Assembly: GCA_021323655.1 (NCBI GenBank)
Contig: JAJPKO010000043.1
Coordinates: 22,337-86,336, forward strand
Direction: 5' to 3'
Length of the DNA: 64,000 nt
Origin: Acidobacteriaceae bacterium
Lineage (GTDB): Bacteria; Acidobacteriota; Terriglobia; Terriglobales; Acidobacteriaceae
The notes under the pieces are model-generated. The model did no database searches and had not been told where the DNA came from. It worked only from the letters and a program-made list of their open reading frames with translations. Both the position numbers and the translations under genes were made by a program. Of the stretch, positions 1,640 to 62,418 are shown one piece after another (the stretch's first letter is position 1; each line of letters starts with the position of its first letter).

Positions 1640-2255
1640 GTACGTGCGCATTACAGAAAAGACCTCGACACGCATTCGCCTTCGGGTCGATCGCTATATG
1701 GGGGAGGGCCGGCAGGCGCATCTGCTGAGCGTCTTTGGAAATGATTCGGACGTGGGCACGATTACTGCGGCCGTTCACGAGAAGGCTACATTTAGCCTTA
1801 CCTTTCCCGATGGCACTACAAAAGAGGTCTCGCTCGGCGAGCGCGCTTCTTGCTACAAAGGCGCGGTAACTCTGCCGGGGCGGAAGCATCCTGTCCGTCA
1901 CCTAGTGGCCGTGTCTCAGGAGCTACACACGAACGGAACTTCGGGCAGGACGCTTCTGTTGCGCTACCGAAGGGAAGAGGCGTGGTCAACACTGGTCAGC
2001 TTCCTCGGTCTTCCCGCGGTTCCCGCCTGGTCTGATCATGTCCTGGGAATTGTCGAAGGAAAGAAGCGGATCGAGGAAATTGACGGAATCGGCTGCGAGC
2101 CGGTGCTGGTTTCAGCGGCCACGGAAGAGGTGCTCGAGTGGATCGGCGAGGGGCTGCGCTCAGGAGCTGTGGCCTTTCCGAGCGAACCTGGTGCTGCTGC
2201 CTGGCCGCGGCCGTCGATTGCGGAGTTGCTTGAGGTTTCGTCTGTATCTTACTGA
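1605..2255 (+). CDS. Hypothetical protein (start uncertain, overlaps methylase 3' end)
   Basis: 216 aa ORF with no recognisable motif. It lies co-directionally between the methylase and the DUF433 gene. Confidence 0.4.
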   Translation: MENAHLRLGLLEYVRITEKTSTRIRLRVDRYMGEGRQAHLLSVFGNDSDVGTITAAVHEKATFSLTFPDGTTKEVSLGERASCYKGAVTLPGRKHPVRHLVAVSQELHTNGTSGRTLLLRYRREEAWSTLVSFLGLPAVPAWSDHVLGIVEGKKRIEEIDGIGCEPVLVSAATEEVLEWIGEGLRSGAVAFPSEPGAAAWPRPSIAELLEVSSVSY

Positions 2256-40603: not shown

Positions 40604-41575
40604 TCATTGAAGTGGTTGGATGAACAAATCCCAAAAGAGCTCTGCCGCGCCCTGCGGCGACAGCTTTTCTTTGTCGCGCCGTCCGTAGGACTGCATACCT
40701 AGCGACTGAAAATAGAGCGTCTGATCGTCGGCTTTTACAGAAACCGCCTCGTTCATTCCGCCGTGTCGTGGATTGTCATCCATGACATATTCAATGCTCT
40801 CAGAACTGAAGCTTCCACCAGCAATGGAGGCCGAACCCTTGCAGACCTTTTGCCCATGCTGGTACAGCGCAGCTGTGAAGTGGGTCGCATCTACCCTCTG
40901 AAAACGTTGATCGATACCTGGATTTCTCTTCACAAGCTCCTGCATCGAGTTTTCAAAGAAACGTGCGATGAATTCAAAGCCGTCGTGCCGGAATCGATCC
41001 CGGTCGAGGTCCGTAAACTCTTTTTTAACGCGGAGATTGCTCGAGCGCTGGCCGCCGAGCGACTCCGAGACATCGTCCATCCACACCGGCTTGGAAAGCA
41101 CTGCGGACGGGGAAAGCGCCAATTTGTGCTCTTCCCCAAGCTCCTTCACTGCCGCCTTTATGGCGCGCTCCACATCGAGGAATGCTTCATCGATGTTTGC
41201 CCAAGTCGTGATCGGCTTGCCGTCGCGTGGGACAGCCAGTAGTTTACCGAAGGGCAGATCGTGCCAGTCGCAAGGCCGAAGAATGATCGGGATCACACGC
41301 GCGTCCCCCTTTTCGTGTCGCTCGATGGCACGCGCCATCTCGCGCTCATAGCAGTAGTCCGAGGCGATGAAGTCTGAACTCACCAGAAGTAGAATTATCT
41401 GCGAGGCATTGAGGTTCCGGTCGATTGCATCCCCGACCGGAGTGCCGGCAGTGATCCGGCGATCGTGCCAAGTCGCGATCAAATCCTGCCGCTTGAGTGT
41501 TGCAAGATGGACTTCCAATTGATTTCGAAGCGTCTCATCCACATGCGAATAGGAAAAAAATAGGTTGGGAGCCAT
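40604..41575 (-). CDS. TIR-domain protein with about 180 aa uncharacterised C-terminal domain
   Basis: LFFSYSHVDETLRNQLEVHL...IILLLVSSDFIASDYCYEREMARAIERH...VIPIILRPCDW is a near-consensus TIR_2 domain with the catalytic-position Glu. Confidence 0.8.
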   Translation of the reverse strand: MAPNLFFSYSHVDETLRNQLEVHLATLKRQDLIATWHDRRITAGTPVGDAIDRNLNASQIILLLVSSDFIASDYCYEREMARAIERHEKGDARVIPIILRPCDWHDLPFGKLLAVPRDGKPITTWANIDEAFLDVERAIKAAVKELGEEHKLALSPSAVLSKPVWMDDVSESLGGQRSSNLRVKKEFTDLDRDRFRHDGFEFIARFFENSMQELVKRNPGIDQRFQRVDATHFTAALYQHGQKVCKGSASIAGGSFSSESIEYVMDDNPRHGGMNEAVSVKADDQTLYFQSLGMQSYGRRDKEKLSPQGAAELFWDLFIQPLQ

Positions 41576-43737: not shown

Positions 43738-43835
43738 GCGGAATCGGGGCCGGTGAAGCTCAGGGCCTTGATCCACATGTGACAGCGTTCACTTCGCTTG
43801 ACTGTCGTCGTATGCGATCATAAACTTGTTTCAGT

Positions 43836-43915
43836 GGTGACGGAGTTCACCCTTAACCGCTGTCCCCAATAGGCCGGACAGATGATGACTCCTGACAGGG
43901 AATACTGTCACGGAG
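43836..43915 (+). promoter_or_regulatory. Fluoride riboswitch (crcB motif) A plus expression-platform hairpin
   Basis: The sequence is GGTGACGGAGTTCACC CTTAACCG CTGTCC-CCAATAGGCC-GGACAG ATGATGACTCCTGAC. It has P1 GGUGA/UCACC, a loop GGAGU that can pseudoknot with the ACUCC tail, and a P3 hairpin. The tail CTCCTGACAG can instead pair with CTGTCACGGAG, which contains the GGAG SD. Confidence 0.8.
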
Positions 43916-43917
43916 CC

Positions 43918-45662
<1,745 letters not shown>

Positions 45663-45674
45663 CGAATTTGCACG

Positions 45675-45748
45675 CGGTGTTGGAGTCCACCGGAACAGCT
45701 CACACGGGCAAATGACTCCTCGAAGCGCGAAAACTTGGAGGAGTCATG
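45675..45748 (+). promoter_or_regulatory. Fluoride riboswitch (crcB motif) B with SD/start-codon-sequestering hairpin
   Basis: The sequence is CGGTG TTGGAGTC CACCG GAACA GCTC-ACAC-GGGC AAATGACTCCTC. The tail ATGACTCCTC (45712-45721) is perfectly complementary to GAGGAGTCAT (45738-45747), which covers the SD and the AT of the ATG at 45746. Confidence 0.8.
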
Positions 45749-53974: not shown

Positions 53975-55600
53975 CTACCGATCACATTCGGTTGCGGACA
54001 GCCCGAAAGTTGCAAGAATGATCGGGAAATCCTGAAACGCGAAATTCTCTGCCGCAACGTGAAACCCGAGCCAATTGTTGAAGGACGGCGTAATTGCCCG
54101 ATATCGCTCGACAATCCCTCTTTCGTCCACTCGCAGCCAGTGAAGGGCGGCGCCTCTTGGGGCTTCTGTCCATCCAAGTGCAGCACCCGCGTGATTTACT
54201 TCATAGGCAACACGAACGGGACCCCCCTCCAACGTGTCGGCAACTTGATGGATCAGTCTCGCCGACTGTGTCGCTTCCGCAAAAAGGATGCGCAGTCTGG
54301 CATAGCCATCGCCCTCTGTCTCGCAGGGAACATCAAACGCAAGTCGTCCGTAGCCAGAATAGGAGCACGCCCGCCGCAAGTCGCAGTGCTGAGCGGAAGC
54401 ACGACCAATTGGGCCCACGAGATTCAGATCCCGGGCGCTCTCTCCAATGACGACCCCCACGTCCTCAAGACGGTCAAGGAAACTGCTGCTCAAGCGAAGC
54501 CGTCTCTCCAGGATGCGAAGATCGCTCTCCGCCTTATCGACTGTGGCGAGCAACGTTTTGCATTGCTCCAATTCGAAATCGCGATTCAGTCCGCCTGGAG
54601 TGTTCAGCCCGAACAGGTAGCGGTGATCCGTGAACACACAGGAGGCGCGGAGCAACTGCTCTTCGATGATCGACGCTTGTGCGGCAGCGACGGCCAGCGC
54701 GGTGGACTCACATATCGCCGCGATCGCACCTGCGTGGTGTCTCAATCGTTCCAGTTCAGCAAGCAGAACCCGAAGAGCCGCGGCTCGTGGCGGCGCCTCG
54801 ACCGCTGCAATTCTCTCGGCAGCGAGACAGAAGGCGAGCGAATGGGCAAATGCGGAGGTGGCAGCAAATCTTTCTGCCAGGAGGAGCGCATCCGGAATGC
54901 TGCGGCCCTCTGCGATCTTTTCGACGGCCCGGTAGTTGTAGAAAAGTCGGGGAGCCGCACGGATCACATCTTCACCGACCGTCTCGAGCAAAAAGTGCAA
55001 GGATTCCCCAATGCCGCCCTCGTATACGGGGCCAACCGGCATCGCGAACGAGCCGGGGTCTCCGACAACCAACAATGGCTGCCACTCCAGGTCCACTTTG
55101 CGCTCGAGTTGTGGACGTTCGGCCGAAAAGGTCTTGCGCATCGGATCGATGCCCTCGTGCCAGATCTGGTCGTGCAAGACAAAATCGCCGAGCCGCGGGT
55201 GGTTCTCGAAATGGATTCCAAACAGATCCTCTATTTCGCGTTCATGCCAATCTGCGGCGTGTACCTCGGTGACAATGCTGGGCAGGGTCTTTGTCTCAAG
55301 CGCCATCGAGAACTCTACATCGATCCATCCCGACCCAGGCAGGAGAAACGTGTAGTGGATCTGCCAATGGTTTGAATGCTCCTCGGCCGTGATTCCACCG
55401 AACAGGCAGCCGTGTTCCCAAAAAAGAAATTGAGCCAGGGTCGGCAGCGCACTTGGCTGACCAACTGAAAGCGTCAGAATAAAATTCGCGCCCGCTCTCA
55501 GTTGGGCAACCTGGTCTCCGAATCGCTCTACGATCATGCCTGTCAGATCGGCCAAGCCTGCTATATTCCCTCCGGCAATGGGTGAGGAATGCGTTGCCAT
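53975..55600 (-). CDS. NuoC-NuoD/HycE-like large subunit lacking the NiFe-binding cysteines
   Basis: The NuoC-like part contains WHEREIEDLFGI. The NuoD/HycE-like part has ERFAATSAFAH where hydrogenases have RxCGxCxxxH, and a C-terminus GLSATECDR instead of DPCxxCxxR. The ATG at 55600 is preceded by GGGAGGA. Confidence 0.75.
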   Translation of the reverse strand: MATHSSPIAGGNIAGLADLTGMIVERFGDQVAQLRAGANFILTLSVGQPSALPTLAQFLFWEHGCLFGGITAEEHSNHWQIHYTFLLPGSGWIDVEFSMALETKTLPSIVTEVHAADWHEREIEDLFGIHFENHPRLGDFVLHDQIWHEGIDPMRKTFSAERPQLERKVDLEWQPLLVVGDPGSFAMPVGPVYEGGIGESLHFLLETVGEDVIRAAPRLFYNYRAVEKIAEGRSIPDALLLAERFAATSAFAHSLAFCLAAERIAAVEAPPRAAALRVLLAELERLRHHAGAIAAICESTALAVAAAQASIIEEQLLRASCVFTDHRYLFGLNTPGGLNRDFELEQCKTLLATVDKAESDLRILERRLRLSSSFLDRLEDVGVVIGESARDLNLVGPIGRASAQHCDLRRACSYSGYGRLAFDVPCETEGDGYARLRILFAEATQSARLIHQVADTLEGGPVRVAYEVNHAGAALGWTEAPRGAALHWLRVDERGIVERYRAITPSFNNWLGFHVAAENFAFQDFPIILATFGLSATECDR

Positions 55601-55601
55601 C

Positions 55602-57047
55602 TCAATGTCCTCCCAATTGCTGCGCCGCAAGTGTCATGAGCGAATGAACAGGTCCAGGAATGTATACCCCGAGAAGTAGGACTGGCGCGACAGCAATAAG
55701 GACCGCCGTTCGGCAACTTCTGGGCGCCAATGCTGGAGTTGCAACATGCGAGGGTTCGCCGAACAACATGCTGTTCACCTGCAGGAAAATGGCTATGAAT
55801 GCGATGACAATTAGGACAGCAAGAATGATGACAGCGGCACTATGCCCTGATCTGAGGCCAGCAGACAAGATTGAAAACTCACTGAGAAAGATCGGAAATG
55901 GCGGCGCACCGGCGATCGCGAGCGAACAAAGCAGTAGCGCGCCGCCCGCAAACGGGGATATACGGAACAGCCCCCGCACCTGGCTGATATCGCGCGTCTC
56001 GAGTGCCAGCAAAACCATCCCTGCTGCGTAGAAACACAGGGACTTGGTAATCGAGTGATTCAACATCTGAGCAACAGCCCCATAGGCCGCAGCGTGCGTT
56101 GCGAAGCCGGTCGCGGTGAGAATGATTCCCATGTGTTCTACAGTGGAGTAGGCGAACATGCGCTTGTAGTCGCGCACCTGCAAGAGCAGGAATGCCGCGA
56201 TCCCCACAGAGAAGAGGCCCACGATCACCATCCACTCGCCGATACGCGCCTCGGGCGAGCGCAGAACGATGGAGAGCAGCCGCAAGACAGCGTACAGAGG
56301 AATCGTGGTCTTCATCCCCGAGAGCACAGCGCATATCGGAGTGGGCGCCTGACTATGAGCATCTGGGAGCCAGGTGTGCATGGGTGCAAGCCCGGACTTG
56401 GCACCGAACCCCACAAAGACCAGCAGAAATGACAATTTCAATAAATTGGGCGACATGGTTGAGGCCATCACATAGAGGCTTTGCCAGGTCTCGGCTGTCC
56501 CCCCGCCGCTGGTGCGAAATGCCCAATAGAGGGTCAAAAATCCAAAGAGCGAAATTGGCGCTCCCATGATGGTCAAGATTGCCATCTTCCAGGCGGCCTC
56601 GAGAGCGCCTGGGGTGCTTTCATACCCGACCAACAACGTCGCAAACAACGTGACCAACTCCACGGCCACCCAAACGAGATTGACCCGAGCCAACGAGGGA
56701 ACCGCCACCAGCGAAAAGACGAACAGATTGTAGTTCGAATAAAACCACCACAAGCGTTCCTTGGACTCGGTTTCGTGCTGCATATAGCCGCCAGAATAGA
56801 TAGCGGCAACGATGCAGACAAAAGTGACCATGACGAGGAGAAGAGCGCTCAGGCCATCCGCCTCAAACCATCCAGCAATCGCGATGAAGCGTCCGTTCAA
56901 GAGAACCTGCCACGCAGTAACACACGCGGCTGAAAGGGTAAGCGCAAGAATGACTATCGTTATAACCCAAGCCATGCGGCGCAACGGCGGGAGCCAACAC
57001 AAGAATGCGGCAAGGAGCGGCAGCGACACAGCAAACATTAGTGCCAT
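55602..57047 (-). CDS. HyfF/NuoN-like antiporter-type membrane subunit
   Basis: 481 aa polytopic protein. GFGAKSGLAPMHTWLPDAHSQAP and STVEHMGII are present. Confidence 0.8.
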   Translation of the reverse strand: MALMFAVSLPLLAAFLCWLPPLRRMAWVITIVILALTLSAACVTAWQVLLNGRFIAIAGWFEADGLSALLLVMVTFVCIVAAIYSGGYMQHETESKERLWWFYSNYNLFVFSLVAVPSLARVNLVWVAVELVTLFATLLVGYESTPGALEAAWKMAILTIMGAPISLFGFLTLYWAFRTSGGGTAETWQSLYVMASTMSPNLLKLSFLLVFVGFGAKSGLAPMHTWLPDAHSQAPTPICAVLSGMKTTIPLYAVLRLLSIVLRSPEARIGEWMVIVGLFSVGIAAFLLLQVRDYKRMFAYSTVEHMGIILTATGFATHAAAYGAVAQMLNHSITKSLCFYAAGMVLLALETRDISQVRGLFRISPFAGGALLLCSLAIAGAPPFPIFLSEFSILSAGLRSGHSAAVIILAVLIVIAFIAIFLQVNSMLFGEPSHVATPALAPRSCRTAVLIAVAPVLLLGVYIPGPVHSLMTLAAQQLGGH

Positions 57048-57743: not shown

Positions 57744-58703
57744 CTAAGCAGCCGAAGCTGAAAAGATGCTCGCGATCATCGCTGCCACAGAGATGATGAA
57801 TGCGGCTCCAAGAAACTCGCTAATGCGAAAGAGGCGCAACTTCGCGAGAGAGGACTCGATCATGACGAGGACGATCGTGAACAAAAGAATCTTGAGCAGT
57901 ATCAAAGGAATCGCGAGCAGCACGTGGACAGGCTGCACATCCCCGGCCAGGCCCCAAGGCGCCAGAAGGACGTTGAGGAAGATACAAGTGAGCACCAGAA
58001 ATTTCATTTGGCCGCCCCACTTCATCAAGGCGGCGCCGCGACCCGAGTATTCAAGCCCTTTCGACTCATCGATCATGGCGAGTTCAAAATGCCCCGTGGG
58101 GTTGTCGACGGGGACCTTTCCACCTTCGGCAAGGATCAGCATCAGGAAGGCAATCAGCAACAGAATGTGCGCAGGAGAAAAGAATGCGGCTGGGCTCGCG
58201 ACCCATTTCTGCTGAACAATGTACGGAATCGTGGATTGGGCTACGAACGAGACGGTGAAAAAGACAATCATGAACACCGGCTCGGCGAGGAACCCCACCA
58301 TTCGCGTTCTGCTCGCTCCCATAGGACCGTATGGGTTTCCGGTATCGACGGCCGCAAGGGCGGCAAAGAAACCGCCAAGTCCGAGAAAGAAGCCGCCGGC
58401 GAGCATATCGCCCATAAACGCAAAAGCTAGGGGATAATCCGTGAGGACCGGTATCAGGCTCGCGACGAACAGCGGCACGATGAAAACCAGGTAAGGCGTC
58501 ACGCAAAAGATCCACGTGGTTTCCGAGGAGACAACCTCGTCTTTATGAAAAAGCTTCCAGAGATCCCGATAGGGCTGAATGATGCTGGGACCGCGCCTGC
58601 TCTGAACCATTTCTTTGAACCGGCTGAGCATGCCAGAGTACAAGGGCGCGAAGCCAAGTACGAAGAGAAGCTGAACGAGGTTATACAGAATTGTCCGTGC
58701 CAT
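57744..58703 (-). CDS. HycD/HyfC/NuoH-like membrane subunit
   Basis: APLYSGMLSRFKEMVQSRRGPSIIQPYRDLWKLFHKDEV is the typical HycD/NuoH N-terminal motif. It is the first gene of the operon. Confidence 0.8.
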   Translation of the reverse strand: MARTILYNLVQLLFVLGFAPLYSGMLSRFKEMVQSRRGPSIIQPYRDLWKLFHKDEVVSSETTWIFCVTPYLVFIVPLFVASLIPVLTDYPLAFAFMGDMLAGGFFLGLGGFFAALAAVDTGNPYGPMGASRTRMVGFLAEPVFMIVFFTVSFVAQSTIPYIVQQKWVASPAAFFSPAHILLLIAFLMLILAEGGKVPVDNPTGHFELAMIDESKGLEYSGRGAALMKWGGQMKFLVLTCIFLNVLLAPWGLAGDVQPVHVLLAIPLILLKILLFTIVLVMIESSLAKLRLFRISEFLGAAFIISVAAMIASIFSASAA

Positions 58704-58903
58704 CGGAACTCCCCTGAGTTTTGCAGTTGGACTGACCGCTGAGGTTCGAGAAATCCGCTCGTTTCTTGCATTCAGCAGCGGCGTACTGCGATTAGAAGCG
58801 CCAATGGACCAAGACGCCCCCGAGTCGGCGGAGGTGTCTCGAAGAGAAAATCTGATTTGGAAGGTTTGAATCTTGGGGTGGACTTTTGGACTCTTCTCTT
58901 CAC

Positions 58904-58970
58904 GGCGCGACTCCTATGAGGTAGGAATCATCAGCCGTGAAGGCGGTTATCGGTGGAGTTCCATCACCGT
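58904..58970 (-). promoter_or_regulatory. Fluoride riboswitch (crcB motif) C, minus strand, about 215 nt upstream of the Hyf-like operon
   Basis: The minus strand reads ACGGTGATGGAACTCCACC GATAAC CGCCTTCACGGC TGATGATTCCTACC. The tail TCCTA can pair with the downstream TAGGA of a TAGGAG SD that precedes the GTG at 58903. Confidence 0.75.
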
Positions 58971-59140
58971 CCCGACATGTGCTGCCAACATATTGAACCG
59001 CAAGAACCTACTTGTCAAGGCGACCACCGCCGCCACGGCATATCGCATCCAGCGTCAGCGCGATCGGAGCAGTGCGCCCCGGACGTGATTCGGCGCGTCA
59101 TTGACAGTCCACCACACCGGTCACGATACTGACTGGGAGC

Positions 59141-59212
59141 GGGTGTTGGAGTCCACTCTGATACGCCCCTCCCACGAGGGGAAGATGACTCCTGCGAGTA
59201 GGACAGCAGGAG
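59141..59212 (+). promoter_or_regulatory. Fluoride riboswitch (crcB motif) D with SD-sequestering hairpin, upstream of the MutS-related pair
   Basis: The sequence is GGGTG TTGGAGTC CACTC TGATACG CCCCTC-CCAC-GAGGGG AAGATGACTCCTGC. The tail ACTCCTGC is perfectly complementary to GCAGGAGT (59205-59212), which contains the AGGAG SD. Confidence 0.8.
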
Positions 59213-59218
59213 TTGACT

Positions 59219-60877
59219 GTGCCAACGAACCCCGCCAATCGCCCAGCCCCGGAGCCCCGGCTACAAAGCAACCCTCCAGCAATCACTCCAGGCAACGAGA
59301 CAAACCCTGATGCTTCAGCCTTTCACAGCATCCTGACCGAGTGTCAGGATGTCGACGGGCAGTCTGAGATCCAGGAAGCTCCTGGATTCTTTAGCGATCT
59401 CAATCTCGATCAGATCGTCGGCACGATCACGGCCGGACGAGAACAGTACGATTTGAAGCCACTCTTCTATACGCCCCTAAAGACCGTTGAGGCTGTTCAC
59501 TATCGGCAGGACGTCTTCCGCGATCTTTCAGGGAATTTCCGCCTATTGGAACTGGTTCGTTCATTTGCGGAAAGAATGCGGGAGATGCGAACTCTTCTCG
59601 CGATTTCCGAAAAGCGATACTACAAACGTCAAAAGCAAGCCGCCTTTCTCGATGCCGTTGAAACATACTGCAATACTGTCACGGTGCTTAAGGAAGGCCT
59701 GCTCTCCACAGGTCCTGCGTCGCGAGGATTCCAGGCGCTTCGCGGTTTTCTTGTCCGCTACACCGGCTCAGAAGAGTTCACCAGCCTGAAGAAGGAAACG
59801 GAGCGGGTCAGAGCAGAGCTCGCGAAGGTCCGATATTCGCTTCACATCCATCAGGGGCGTGTCACGGTCAACCGCACTGACACGGAAGGCGACTACAGCG
59901 AGGAAGTTCTCAGAACCTTCGAAAAATTCCGGCAGACGGATCCGCGAAGCCATCGCTTCAAGGTTCCCCTATCGATTGAGATGAATCACATTGAGGCACG
60001 AATCCTCGATCTGGTCTCCGCATTGCATTCGGAAGCATTTGCCCGCCTAGACGCGTATTGCGACCGATACCGCAACTACTGTCATCAGCTGATTGCCAGA
60101 TTCGATCGCGAAGTACAGTTCTACATCGCCTATCTCGAACAACTGGAACAGTTGAAGAAGGCAGCGCTTCCGTTCTGTTTCCCAGGCGTGAGCAGCCATT
60201 CGAAGGAAGTGCAGGCGCTCGACACCTACGATGTTGCGCTTGCGAATCAGCTGATTCATGCCCGGAAAGATGTGGTTAAAAACAGCTTTTGCTTGAACGA
60301 ACCCGAGCGCACTTTAGTCGTCTCTGGGCCCAATCAAGGCGGGAAGACCACGTTTGCGCGCACCTTTGGACAGCTACATTATCTGGCGGCTCTGGGCTGT
60401 CCGGTGGCGGGCATCTCAACAAAATTATTCCTATTTGATCGACTCTTTACGCACTTCGAGAAGGAAGAGGACATTCAAAATCTACGCGGGAAGCTTGAAG
60501 ACGAGCTGATCCGCATCAACGAGATTCTTGAGAATGCGACAGCGAACAGCATCCTCATAACGAACGAGAGCTTTTTGTCGACGACGATGAACGACGCTCT
60601 CTTTCTCAGCCGCGAGGTGATGAAGCGGATCGCCGCTCTCGATATGCTTTGCGTGACTGTTACGTTTCTCGATGAATTGGCTTCATTCAACGAAACGACT
60701 GTAAGCATGGTCAGCACGGTGAATCCCACGGATCCGCAGCAGCGGACATTCAAAGTGATCCGGAGACCGGCTGATGGCCTTGCTTACGCAGCAGCGATCG
60801 CCGAGAAATATCACCTGACCTACGAGGCAGTGAAGACGCGGGTAGGTGCGAGGGAAAGCGAGGTGAACGAGTCATGA
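59219..60877 (+). CDS. MutS-related ATPase (domain V type, no mismatch-binding domain recognised) 1
   Basis: Walker A is VVSGPNQGGKTTFARTFGQL. The Walker B-like segment is SILITNESFLSTT. The GTG at 59219 lies 6 nt after AGGAG; the track start TTG at 59213 has no spacing. Confidence 0.7.
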   Translation: MPTNPANRPAPEPRLQSNPPAITPGNETNPDASAFHSILTECQDVDGQSEIQEAPGFFSDLNLDQIVGTITAGREQYDLKPLFYTPLKTVEAVHYRQDVFRDLSGNFRLLELVRSFAERMREMRTLLAISEKRYYKRQKQAAFLDAVETYCNTVTVLKEGLLSTGPASRGFQALRGFLVRYTGSEEFTSLKKETERVRAELAKVRYSLHIHQGRVTVNRTDTEGDYSEEVLRTFEKFRQTDPRSHRFKVPLSIEMNHIEARILDLVSALHSEAFARLDAYCDRYRNYCHQLIARFDREVQFYIAYLEQLEQLKKAALPFCFPGVSSHSKEVQALDTYDVALANQLIHARKDVVKNSFCLNEPERTLVVSGPNQGGKTTFARTFGQLHYLAALGCPVAGISTKLFLFDRLFTHFEKEEDIQNLRGKLEDELIRINEILENATANSILITNESFLSTTMNDALFLSREVMKRIAALDMLCVTVTFLDELASFNETTVSMVSTVNPTDPQQRTFKVIRRPADGLAYAAAIAEKYHLTYEAVKTRVGARESEVNES

Positions 60878-62418
60878 AAGTCTTCCTCATGTTTCGGGAC
60901 CACGACTTTGTCCTCGACGAGGGTATCCCGGAAAATGCGCAAGAAACGATTCAGGATCTTGAGTTGAACACCCTGTTTCGGGCCGTGGCTGGCGGCGATG
61001 ATTTTCTACTGCAAGTTGCGAAAGGTGCCGTGCTCGCAAGCCTCAAGAATCGAGAATCCATCCTTTATCGGCAGGAGGTGCTTGCGGACTGCCTGGCATT
61101 CCCCGACATTGCGCGAGATCTCTACGCTCTCGCAGTTGATGCCATTGAACGCGAGAGCCGGATCTGGGGTTGGTTCGCGCTTTCTTCTCCGGACTCGCTG
61201 CTGCACCGATCGGTCGAAGCTTTGGGACTTCTTATTGGGTTGCTTGAGCGCCTAAGAAAACTGGCTGATGAACACAGTTCCAAATTCCGCTCAGAAGGCT
61301 TCCGGTGGTTCTTTGGCATGGCCACTCAGGAACTGTCCGATAGCTACCTGCAAGCTGTGAAGGACCACCTGGTAAGACTGGAGTTCCGCGGCGGCGTTCA
61401 AATGAGCGCCGATCTGGGGCGCGATTTTCGAGGCTCCAATTACACTCTCCACAGCCTTGAGGTAGAGGCACTGGGTTGGTTCGAACAGGTCCGGGAATGG
61501 GTCGGCCAGATCACGCGCAAAGATGACTCGGGGCTGTCATTCGACGTTGACCCACGCGACGAGGCGGGCTTCCGTGCATTGGAAGCGCTCAGAACGGAGG
61601 GGATCGCCAATGTCGCTATTGCGTTGGCGCAATCGAGCGATCACATTCTTAGTTTCTTTAAGGCGCTGCGATTGGAATTGGGATTCTATATAGGATGCCT
61701 AAATCTGCGGGACAAACTCGCCGCGAAACAGGAGCCCTTCTGCATTCCAAATCCACTGCCAGAGAAAGACGAAGTACTTCGGTGCCAGGGAATCTACGAC
61801 GTTTGCTTGACCCTGAACACAGCCGAGCGGGTGGTCGGCAACGACGTCTGCGGGGAGAAAAAAGCCTTGGTTGTGATTACGGGCGCCAACCGCGGCGGCA
61901 AGTCGACACTCTTACGGAGCTTTGGCGTGGCTCAGCTGATGATGCAGTGCGGCATGTTCGTACCGGCGCGCGAATTCCATGCGAATGTCTGCCAGGGCAT
62001 CTTTACCCATTTCAAGCGAGAAGAAGATGCCAGCATGAAAAGTGGCAAACTGGACGAAGAACTCAGCAGAATGAATGCCATTGTAGAGCGAATTACACCT
62101 CGTTGCGTGCTTCTTCTAAATGAGTCGTTTGCTTCAACCAATGAGCGGGAGGGGTCGGAAATCGCCAGACAGATCGTTCGCGCTCTCCTTGAAAAACAGG
62201 TAAAGATTCTCTATGTCACGCACATGTTCGATCTGGCGGATGGGTTTCATCGGCAGCACATGGAGTCTGCACTCTTTCTTCGTGCCGAGCGCCTCGAGGA
62301 CGGCACGCGTACTTTCCGCCTTTTGGAAGGGGTGCCTGAGAGAACCAGCTATGGGGAAGATCTGTTCCGGCGCATTTTTCAGGCTGAACCTGAGAGCCTT
62401 CAGCCCACCGCGCAGTGA
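60874..62418 (+). CDS. MutS-related ATPase (domain V type) 2
   Basis: Walker A is VVITGANRGGKSTLLRSFGVAQLMMQCGMFVPA. The Walker B-like segment is VLLLNESFASTNEREG. Its ATG overlaps the upstream stop. Confidence 0.7.
   Translation: MKVFLMFRDHDFVLDEGIPENAQETIQDLELNTLFRAVAGGDDFLLQVAKGAVLASLKNRESILYRQEVLADCLAFPDIARDLYALAVDAIERESRIWGWFALSSPDSLLHRSVEALGLLIGLLERLRKLADEHSSKFRSEGFRWFFGMATQELSDSYLQAVKDHLVRLEFRGGVQMSADLGRDFRGSNYTLHSLEVEALGWFEQVREWVGQITRKDDSGLSFDVDPRDEAGFRALEALRTEGIANVAIALAQSSDHILSFFKALRLELGFYIGCLNLRDKLAAKQEPFCIPNPLPEKDEVLRCQGIYDVCLTLNTAERVVGNDVCGEKKALVVITGANRGGKSTLLRSFGVAQLMMQCGMFVPAREFHANVCQGIFTHFKREEDASMKSGKLDEELSRMNAIVERITPRCVLLLNESFASTNEREGSEIARQIVRALLEKQVKILYVTHMFDLADGFHRQHMESALFLRAERLEDGTRTFRLLEGVPERTSYGEDLFRRIFQAEPESLQPTAQ

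Follow-up and report, generated by a model that had tools for sequence, protein, structure and literature searches.

How a single intergenic region can place two outward-reading transcription units under fluoride control, when one of its two riboswitches stands in front of a short leader reading frame and not in front of a structural gene, is the question raised by a locus on an Acidobacteriaceae contig (GenBank JAJPKO010000043.1, assembly GCA_021323655.1). A stretch of 64,000 nt of this contig, here called the window, was analysed. In it, 515 nt separate a Hyf/complex-I-like operon on the minus strand, whose first, hyfC-like gene (hereafter hyfC) starts with the ATG at 58703, from a pair of MutS-like genes on the plus strand, and these 515 nt hold two fluoride-class aptamers, C and D. 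The reading we favour, with a probability of roughly 0.65, is that both are divergent fluoride ON switches, D acting directly on the first MutS-like gene and C acting on the operon by way of a 43-codon upstream open reading frame (uORF).

The hyf side was compared with 80 species-level genome loci encoding a HyfC-like protein of 75–97% identity, and the MutS side with the regions upstream of MutS-like orthologs in 80 genome loci and 80 metagenome loci. Individual loci are referred to by L numbers.

Two divergent aptamers and their masking hairpins

Aptamer C (58977-58915, minus strand) matches the Rfam model RF01734 over its entire length (model positions 1–64 of 64) with 53.8 bits and an E value of 4e-12 over the whole window, the gathering score of the model being 34 bits. 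Judged by this match it is a canonical fluoride riboswitch aptamer, and fluoride binding is predicted. A promoter-like site for the hyf-like transcript can be read from the sequence at 59018-58990 (minus strand), with a -35 element TTGACA at 59018-59013, a 17-nt spacer and a -10 element CAATAT at 58995-58990. The site stops about 13 nt upstream of the aptamer, placing the predicted start a few nt before it, and TTGACA and CAnnAT at equal spacing are retained in all C-clade relatives. It is missing from the list of the consensus scan because its -10 element matches at just 3/6 positions.

The expression platform of aptamer C is a hairpin at 58942-58898 (minus strand; UUCACGGCUGAUGAUUCCUA paired with UAGGAGUCGCGCCGUGAA), predicted to form in the OFF state. 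It folds with -26.9 kcal/mol (z -6.45), and none of 200 shuffled sequences was as stable. The 5′ half of the hairpin consists of the 3′ strand of aptamer P2 and the pseudoknot strand, the alternative pairing using GAUUCCUA. It had been predicted that C gates the Shine-Dalgarno sequence (SD) and GUG of a 43-codon open reading frame (ORF), and in agreement with this the hairpin encloses both the SD UAGGAG (58916-58911) and the GUG (58903-58901); the earlier placement of the SD at 58915-58910 was in error. In relatives the pairing of the hairpin is preserved through G-U wobble, for example where Lys changes to Gly. An intrinsic terminator was considered as the platform of C and rejected, the consensus scan having found no terminator-like element 3′ of the aptamer on the minus strand.

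Aptamer D (59133-59201, plus strand) scores 20.7 bits with RF01734, below the gathering score. Its E value was 0.003 in a search of 801 nt, and it was unreported at E<=0.5 when the whole window was searched; on Rfam alone aptamer D is not established. Strict regular expressions and an nhmmer profile of canonical aptamers missed the D-type aptamers, as well as hyf-side aptamers with an inserted hairpin, and were replaced by Rfam together with our own covariance model. This model, R1, whose 16 training sequences all lie outside the window's clade, assigns D (59136-59198) 77.8 bits (E 3e-19) and also recovers both Rfam-level aptamers of the window.

A total of 23 distinct D-type sequences was found upstream of orthologous MutS-like genes. 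Their hallmarks are GGGUGUUGGAGUCCAC..., a G+C-rich P2 and (A/C)AGAUGACUCCU, with a conserved GATACT -10 box directly upstream and an SD-masking hairpin downstream. Helices P1 and P2 are retained throughout the set, as is the pseudoknot (GGAGU/ACUCC), with 89.4% of cells paired as against 46–58% in slid controls, and four pairs of P2 are altered on both sides (n=23); the pseudoknot is invariant and therefore uninformative as pairing evidence. The RF01734 scores of the orthologous MutS-side aptamers run continuously from 27.2 to 43.7 bits, those of L131, L087, L107 and L027 exceeding 34. The weak score of aptamer D thus lies at the bottom of a gradient and does not stand in isolation.

Compared with canonical aptamers, D has GUUGG for GAUGG, AAGAUGA for CUGAUGA and J12 GAUAC for UAACC. 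In the T. petrophila aptamer A6 and U38 form a reversed Watson-Crick tertiary pair (bioRxiv 10.1101/2024.06.23.600262). With positions mapped by eye from the consensus, the equivalents of A6 and U38 are U and A, invariant in 23/23 D-type sequences, and mapping in the same way showed that the equivalents of A40 and U48, a reversed Hoogsteen pair in T. petrophila numbering, are present. The U/A combination looks like a swap of partners that preserves the tertiary pair, which we regard as a lead and not as proof. It is quite likely that aptamer D is a genuine variant of the fluoride class, and it would then be expected to bind fluoride.

The MutS-like transcript has a promoter-like site at 59101-59130 (plus strand; TTGACA, 18 nt, GATACT; 10/12 in the consensus scan), which ends 3 nt before D, and GATACT is found directly upstream of D-type aptamers in many orthologous loci. 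The platform hairpin of D (59187-59214, plus strand; GACUCCUGC paired with GCAGGAGUU; -16.7 kcal/mol, z -3.0) masks the SD AGGAG at 59208-59212. The stem ACUCCUGC/GCAGGAGU at 59187-59214 bears out the earlier proposal that the SD of the first MutS-like gene can be sequestered by D, and the design recurs in orthologs, where an equivalent CUCC/GGAG pairing masks the MutS-like SD. Without fluoride the 3′ strand of the pseudoknot (ACUCC) would pair with this SD; with fluoride the pseudoknot would form and the SD would be freed, as in an ordinary translational switch.

The intergenic region thus holds two divergent fluoride-class aptamers, as had been suggested, C being recognised by Rfam and D by an independent covariance model. 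They point away from each other with 170 nt between them, by the coordinates of the original prediction. Such an arrangement is not restricted to the window. In some 24 of the 80 species-level loci, covariance model and Rfam together reveal, no more than about 650 nt upstream of the hyfC-like gene, a further fluoride-class aptamer encoded on the other strand, and in L107 the two aptamers are merely 47 nt apart. The divergent partner genes vary, and include the MutS-like pair, a dynamin-like GTPase, a pyrophosphatase, an enolase and a metallophosphoesterase. This recurrence argues that the divergent pair is a common assembly of the fluoride regulon in the phylum and not a special bidirectional device. 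Each switch has, as read from the sequence, a promoter-like site and a platform of its own, and the two would respond to fluoride independently, as ON switches whose back-to-back promoters drive divergent transcription.

A conserved leader ORF upstream of hyfC

The uORF is present as originally described, at 58903-58772 (minus strand), with a GTG start, 43 codons (VKRRVQKSTPRFKPSKSDFLFETPPPTRGRLGPLALLIAVRRC) and a UGA stop 68 nt before the ATG at 58703. A lack of conservation had been named beforehand as a reason to abandon the proposal. A gated, GUG-initiated ORF was found in all 25 distinct C-type leaders, each having GGAG, a GUG 5–9 nt further on and an ORF of at least 36 codons. In 16 of the 25 the uORF comprises 41–44 codons and stops 66–77 nt before the hyfC ATG. 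The members of this group start with V(K/R)(K/R)IVQK and end with (L)(I/V)AVRRC-UGA, the last residues being RRC, SRC, LRC or CRC. Five other C-clade uORFs have 62 codons, leaving a gap of 17 nt, and three (L016, L017 and L098) extend to the start of hyfC.

The case for coding rests on the conserved stop, the pattern of codon positions and an excess of synonymous differences. Pairwise differences in the last eight codons amount to 2.09/1.54/4.33 at the three codon positions; the 3′ end of the uORF shows synonymous changes among CGC, CGG, CGA and CGT and between UGC and UGU, and UGA follows Cys in 16/16. No third-position excess is seen in the N-terminal codons, whose conservation is explained by their pairing within the platform hairpin. 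Over the whole uORF there are 8.1 synonymous differences in frame 0 versus 3.8 and 3.3 in the shifted frames; non-synonymous differences dominate, and the coding signal is weak. The peptides are 24–56% identical among relatives where HyfC is 88–97% identical, and the composition is unlike that of normal genes, with G at codon position 1 in 15% versus 36%. Membership of a known peptide family was considered and rejected, a Pfam search of the uORF peptide returning no family and a profile search of 5.8 billion proteins just two matches, both unnamed and 43 aa long. Some annotation pipelines call the uORF as a gene. From these patterns we conclude that the 43-codon leader ORF is real and probably translated, and that selection would mainly see the act of its translation, together with a short C-terminal motif.

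A further ORF of 90 codons opens at an AUG abutting the uORF stop (UGAAUG; 58771-58499, minus strand) and crosses the hyfC start in another frame. It was dropped as a candidate, the junction being retained only in L007, and is probably incidental.

Across the acidobacterial members of the 80 species-level genomes, the hyf-side fluoride aptamer almost always gates a uORF of 16–71 codons, the peptide sequences being unrelated between clades. The stop codon of the uORF and the start codon of the hyfC-like gene overlap, as AUGA or UGAUG, at 41 of the 75 related loci where a uORF is gated; the count is inflated by kinship and does not stand for 41 independent events. For gated ORFs of such different lengths to terminate precisely at the hyfC start, their reading frame has to be maintained. 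Because of this overlap and of the ppe2 precedent described below, the prediction that leader translation passes on the decision of the riboswitch is well supported for the hyfC-like family, which lends strong indirect support to the original idea that leader translation controls the operon. The C content of uORFs tends to be higher where they end before hyfC than where they overlap it, a tendency confounded by phylogeny. Verrucomicrobial and betaproteobacterial loci have terminator platforms, or carry the operon behind crcB-DUF190.

Two variations were seen among the hyf-side aptamers. Many in Acidobacteria contain an extra G+C-rich hairpin between P1 and J12 (GGCAAAGGAGUUUGCC-UUCCCGGUGAAAGCCGGGAA-AAAGCGCC...), and aptamers of this kind (e.g. 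L013 3700-3791, L026 3708-3799 and L052 3734-3818) pass the Rfam threshold with 34–46 bits. In L009, L014 and L019 an aptamer of the type of aptamer A, described below, lies upstream of hyfC and gates a mini-ORF of six codons (MSRPDP*, VSRPNP* and MSRRHP*), which is followed by a second SD and a uORF ending on the hyfC start. Gating of a uORF is thus not limited to aptamer C.

The proposed relay from leader to operon in the window

Aptamer C would not act on hyfC directly. Its alternative hairpin would hide the SD and GUG of the leader; fluoride would turn on translation of the uORF, and the decision would be relayed to the six-gene operon. In most related Acidobacteria, where the stop of the uORF overlaps the start of hyfC, the relay presumably works by direct termination-reinitiation. 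For the window's clade we propose that a C-rich, G-poor stretch of the leader is covered by translating ribosomes, which so block premature Rho-dependent termination, alternatives being unmasking of the hyfC initiation region or reinitiation downstream. The involvement of Rho in this window is a tentative proposal, to which we give somewhat less than an even chance. The candidate Rho-utilisation (rut) region lies at 58907-58804 (minus strand), where 78-nt windows contain 32–36% C and 15–18% G (C/G 1.9–2.1) and rank in the top 2.4% of operon windows. Over the first ~90 nt of the uORF, C/G is 1.28–2.13 in 25/25 relatives.

Several observations weigh against the reading in which D acts directly and C through the uORF. 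Aptamer D falls below the gathering score of RF01734, and its J12 sequence AUAC departs from the consensus AACC at two positions. J12 also varies within the window's clade (GAUAC, UAUAU, AAAAUAC), the sister sequences retaining UAACC, and this deviation and variability among close relatives are the main ground for doubting that D is fully functional. In the leader, frames +2 and 0 are open to nearly the same extent (median 42 and 43 codons, respectively), and openness of the ORF alone is therefore weak coding evidence. The window's uORF ends without overlapping hyfC, leaving a spacer of 68 nt (58771-58704, minus strand), which contains, 5 nt before the ATG, a strong SD (GGGGAG, 58714-58709) belonging to hyfC itself, so the sequence does not make it apparent that hyfC depends on the uORF. 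RNAalifold, applied to the segments from the uORF end to hyfC in 16 relatives, returned zero pairs of a conserved structure linking the uORF to the hyfC initiation region; by eye, the RRC and stop codons can often pair with a segment 35–50 nt downstream (e.g. CCGCUG/CAGCGG), the partner being inconsistent. In partition-function calculations, holding the uORF unpaired brings the accessibility of the hyfC SD from 0.32 to just 0.43, a gain that is inconsistent across the 25 leaders. The skew of C over G is confined to codon positions 1 and 2 and absent at position 3, and so may be a by-product of a Pro/Gln/Ser/Leu-rich peptide and not specific support for a rut site; selection for C-richness at the nucleotide level was rejected on this ground. 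Finally, every comparative sequence is a metagenome assembly.

These points bear differently on the alternatives. A relay by translation without Rho would have the uORF ribosomes open a structure that hides the hyfC SD and AUG, or reinitiate about 68 nt downstream, and the window's clade would then represent a loosened version of the stop/start-overlap design of its relatives. Such coupling by overlap dominates among the relatives counted above, the uORFs of L016, L017 and L098 reach the hyfC start within the same C-type clade, and of the pairing predicted for the hyfC SD and AUG in the window's structural ensemble, 69% involves uORF sequence (e.g. CCAUUGG/CCGAUGG). However, the 16 relatives share no conserved or covarying structure, the gain in accessibility is small and differs between relatives, and hyfC carries a strong SD of its own. 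Furthermore, 66–77 nt is a long distance for bacterial reinitiation. A relay of this kind is in our view rather unlikely.

The peptide itself has also been suggested to be functional. For most of its length this suggestion was not upheld, the peptides being unrelated between clades and most of the ORF near-neutral; what stands is the last ~7 residues, where selection appears to act at the level of amino acids. In its full form, the suggestion would make the leader ORF a fluoride-response micropeptide or a programmed stalling peptide with an active C terminus ...(L)(I/V)AVRRC-UGA, regulation of hyfC being secondary. The last eight codons, with third-position differences two to three times those at the first and second positions, fit such a role, as does the UGA following Cys in all 16 members of the group in the presence of synonymous changes of the Arg and Cys codons. 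The remainder of the peptide, in contrast, is far less conserved than HyfC, non-synonymous differences lie far above synonymous ones, the uORFs of sister clades are unrelated in sequence and length, the searches gave no Pfam match and two unnamed proteins, and the composition is atypical; we regard this explanation as improbable. Scarcely credible is the notion that the ORF is incidental, with C acting directly on the transcript (e.g. through a Rho or RNase site) and GGAG serving merely as an anti-pseudoknot strand. It would accommodate the nearly equal openness of frame +2, and conservation of the N-terminal codons is explained by the hairpin. Yet the succession of GGAG and, within 5–9 nt, GUG is invariant in all 25 distinct leaders, the stop position and the C-terminal codons are kept through synonymous changes, and the gated ORFs of other clades end on the hyfC start at 16–71 codons.

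Within the favoured reading, that C controls the operon through translation of the uORF, the relay may have two stages. The riboswitch would license initiation on the uORF, and the nascent ...AVRRC with its invariant UGA would make the ribosome dwell at termination. We consider this improbable. Were it true, the dwelling ribosome would protect the RNA next to it from Rho, in the manner of TnaC, or keep the spacer open, turning a weak translational decision into transcriptional control of a 7.6-kb operon, and the window would provide the first case of a riboswitch joined to a programmed termination-stalling peptide.

The fluoride locus and its relation to known systems

The hyf-like operon spans 58703-51062 (minus strand) and comprises six genes, identified by Pfam as encoding NuoH-like, NuoK-like and antiporter-like proteins, a fused NuoC/D-like large subunit, a NuoB-like protein and a second antiporter-like protein. 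Source contigs have the identical gene order. Group 4 [NiFe] hydrogenases are recognised by four Cys ligands in an N-terminal RxCGxC and a C-terminal DPCxxC motif. The large subunit (53975-55630, minus strand, 551 aa) has no CxxC anywhere, so that the N-terminal CxxC ligands of NiFe are missing; RVCGICGFAH of E. coli HycE (7z0s_E) aligns with RFAATSAFAH. It follows from the lack of CxxC that the complex cannot hold a NiFe site. It is probably a hydrogenase-related, ion-translocating complex, for which we use only the label Hyf/complex-I-like membrane complex, the public annotation being formate hydrogenlyase (FHL). The HyfC-like protein is 75–77% identical between Acidobacteria and Verrucomicrobia, Betaproteobacteria and Desulfobacterales. 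Such identity is unusually high for different phyla, and suggests that the fluoride-associated hyf-like operon has spread horizontally.

On the other side, two overlapping genes with MutS domain V (Pfam MutS_V; 59219-60877 and 60874-62418, plus strand) lie downstream of aptamer D and are kept as a pair in relatives. The conserved start of the first is the GTG at 59219; the mechanical list of ORFs opens it at the TTG at 59213 instead. The neighbourhood as a whole is a fluoride-regulon gene set, comprising enolase, a dynamin-like GTPase, CrcB, DUF190, Usp, the Hyf/complex-I-like operon, the two MutS-domain-V genes, an MFS transporter and a pyrophosphatase. Relatives at 96–97%, and identical contigs, all belong to Acidobacteriaceae (Terriglobia). 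Just upstream of the fluoride gene cluster lies a TIR-domain protein (Pfam TIR_2, E 1e-12; 40604-41575, minus strand), unrelated to the riboswitch pair.

Two more fluoride aptamers are found in the window. Aptamer A (43827-43901, plus strand) has an RF01734 score of 39.1 bits, and its platform (GACUCCUGACAGGG...CGGAGCC AUG) gates the ATG at 43918, from which an ORF extends past the enolase start (44358) as far as 44433. The fourth fluoride-class aptamer is D-like and lies between enolase and the dynamin-like GTPase (45670-45725, plus strand; GGUGUUGGAGUCCACC...GGGCAAAUGACUCCU); a masking hairpin (CUCC/GGAGGAG) precedes the ATG at 45746. Our own model gives it 28.5 bits (E 6e-6), and Rfam did not report it at E<=0.5. 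Among the MutS-side loci, the fluoride aptamer of L162 has three tandem units of 17 nt (CCCGTTGGTTGACGA) in its P2 region, between ...GAAAATG and CCCGTTGGGCTGATAACTCCT. In L089 a sub-threshold match to the Acido-Lenti-1 small RNA (1917-1961, minus strand; 28.2 bits, gathering score 37) lies near a MutS-associated fluoride aptamer.

Fluoride riboswitches are a textbook model, and have been studied almost entirely as terminator or simple SD-masking switches. Leader peptides that control Rho-dependent termination are found in E. coli tnaC-tnaA and in the Salmonella mgtA leader (mgtL, with an Mg2+ riboswitch). There, the ribosome or the peptide senses the signal (Trp, Pro or Mg2+). The window resembles tnaC and mgtL in having a short leader ORF, an untranslated spacer and then the structural gene, with leader occupancy proposed to decide Rho loading, and it shares with TnaC an invariant UGA after a conserved C-terminal peptide, seen in the group of the window's uORF. 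The tna spacer, at about 220 nt, is far longer than the 68 nt found here. A second difference is that the sensor here would be the riboswitch gating initiation, the roles of Rho and of stalling being putative.

The crcB motif has been linked to mutS and formate hydrogen lyase genes since its discovery in 2010 (PMC2864571), and the link was repeated in a 2024 review (PMC11139923). Compared with RF01734, aptamer C is full-scoring, and D shares the architecture of P1, P2 and pseudoknot and the 3′ core GAUGACUCCU. Both lie in 5′ leaders of the listed gene classes, and both have the layout of an ON switch, in which pseudoknot strand and platform compete. D differs by its score below threshold, by U/A at the positions of A6-U38 and by its altered J12. 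C differs in that its platform gates a leader ORF and not the first structural gene or a terminator, and the two switches stand head to head.

The closest precedent is the B12 riboswitch of M. tuberculosis ppe2, which masks the initiation region of the uPPE2 uORF, translation of this uORF being needed downstream (Kipkorir et al. 2024, PMC11260477). In ppe2 the uORF and the gene meet in an AUGA overlap, the gene lacks an SD of its own, and termination-reinitiation was shown experimentally (PMC11260477). Both systems have a platform that masks the start of a short, partly conserved uORF, and overlap of the AUGA type is what the majority of the hyfC-like loci with a gated uORF show. Whereas the B12 switch is an OFF switch, the fluoride switch described here, known from its sequence, would be an ON switch, and where ppe2 has an overlap and no SD, the window has a 68-nt gap and an SD for hyfC. 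The SAM-II riboswitch of Sinorhizobium meliloti metA, described as controlling translation at a distance (PMC9373788), is alike in that its directly gated start codon is reportedly not that of the main gene.

The aptamer class, the gene associations and the principle of the relay are already known. A full-text search of open-access papers and preprints returned no paper joining a fluoride riboswitch with a uORF or leader peptide. What is new is this undescribed combination, the layout with a gap and a conserved RRC-UGA end, and an aptamer subclass missed by the curated model. The MutS-associated variant that Rfam misses can now be defined, with its apparent swap of a known tertiary pair. Furthermore, the absent NiFe site in the 'hydrogenlyase' of the fluoride regulon bears on the role of the operon in fluoride stress, and on why 'FHL' genes belong there.

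The hyf-side leaders form a natural, phylogenetically replicated series, in which the uORF stop lies on the hyfC start, 17 nt upstream of it, or about 70 nt upstream with RRC-UGA. This series offers a means of examining how control at the level of translation by a riboswitch extends over a long operon, and whether Rho polarity provides the connection. If fluoride switch C acts as proposed, the relay from a riboswitch to a uORF would no longer be known just from the B12 switches of mycobacteria.

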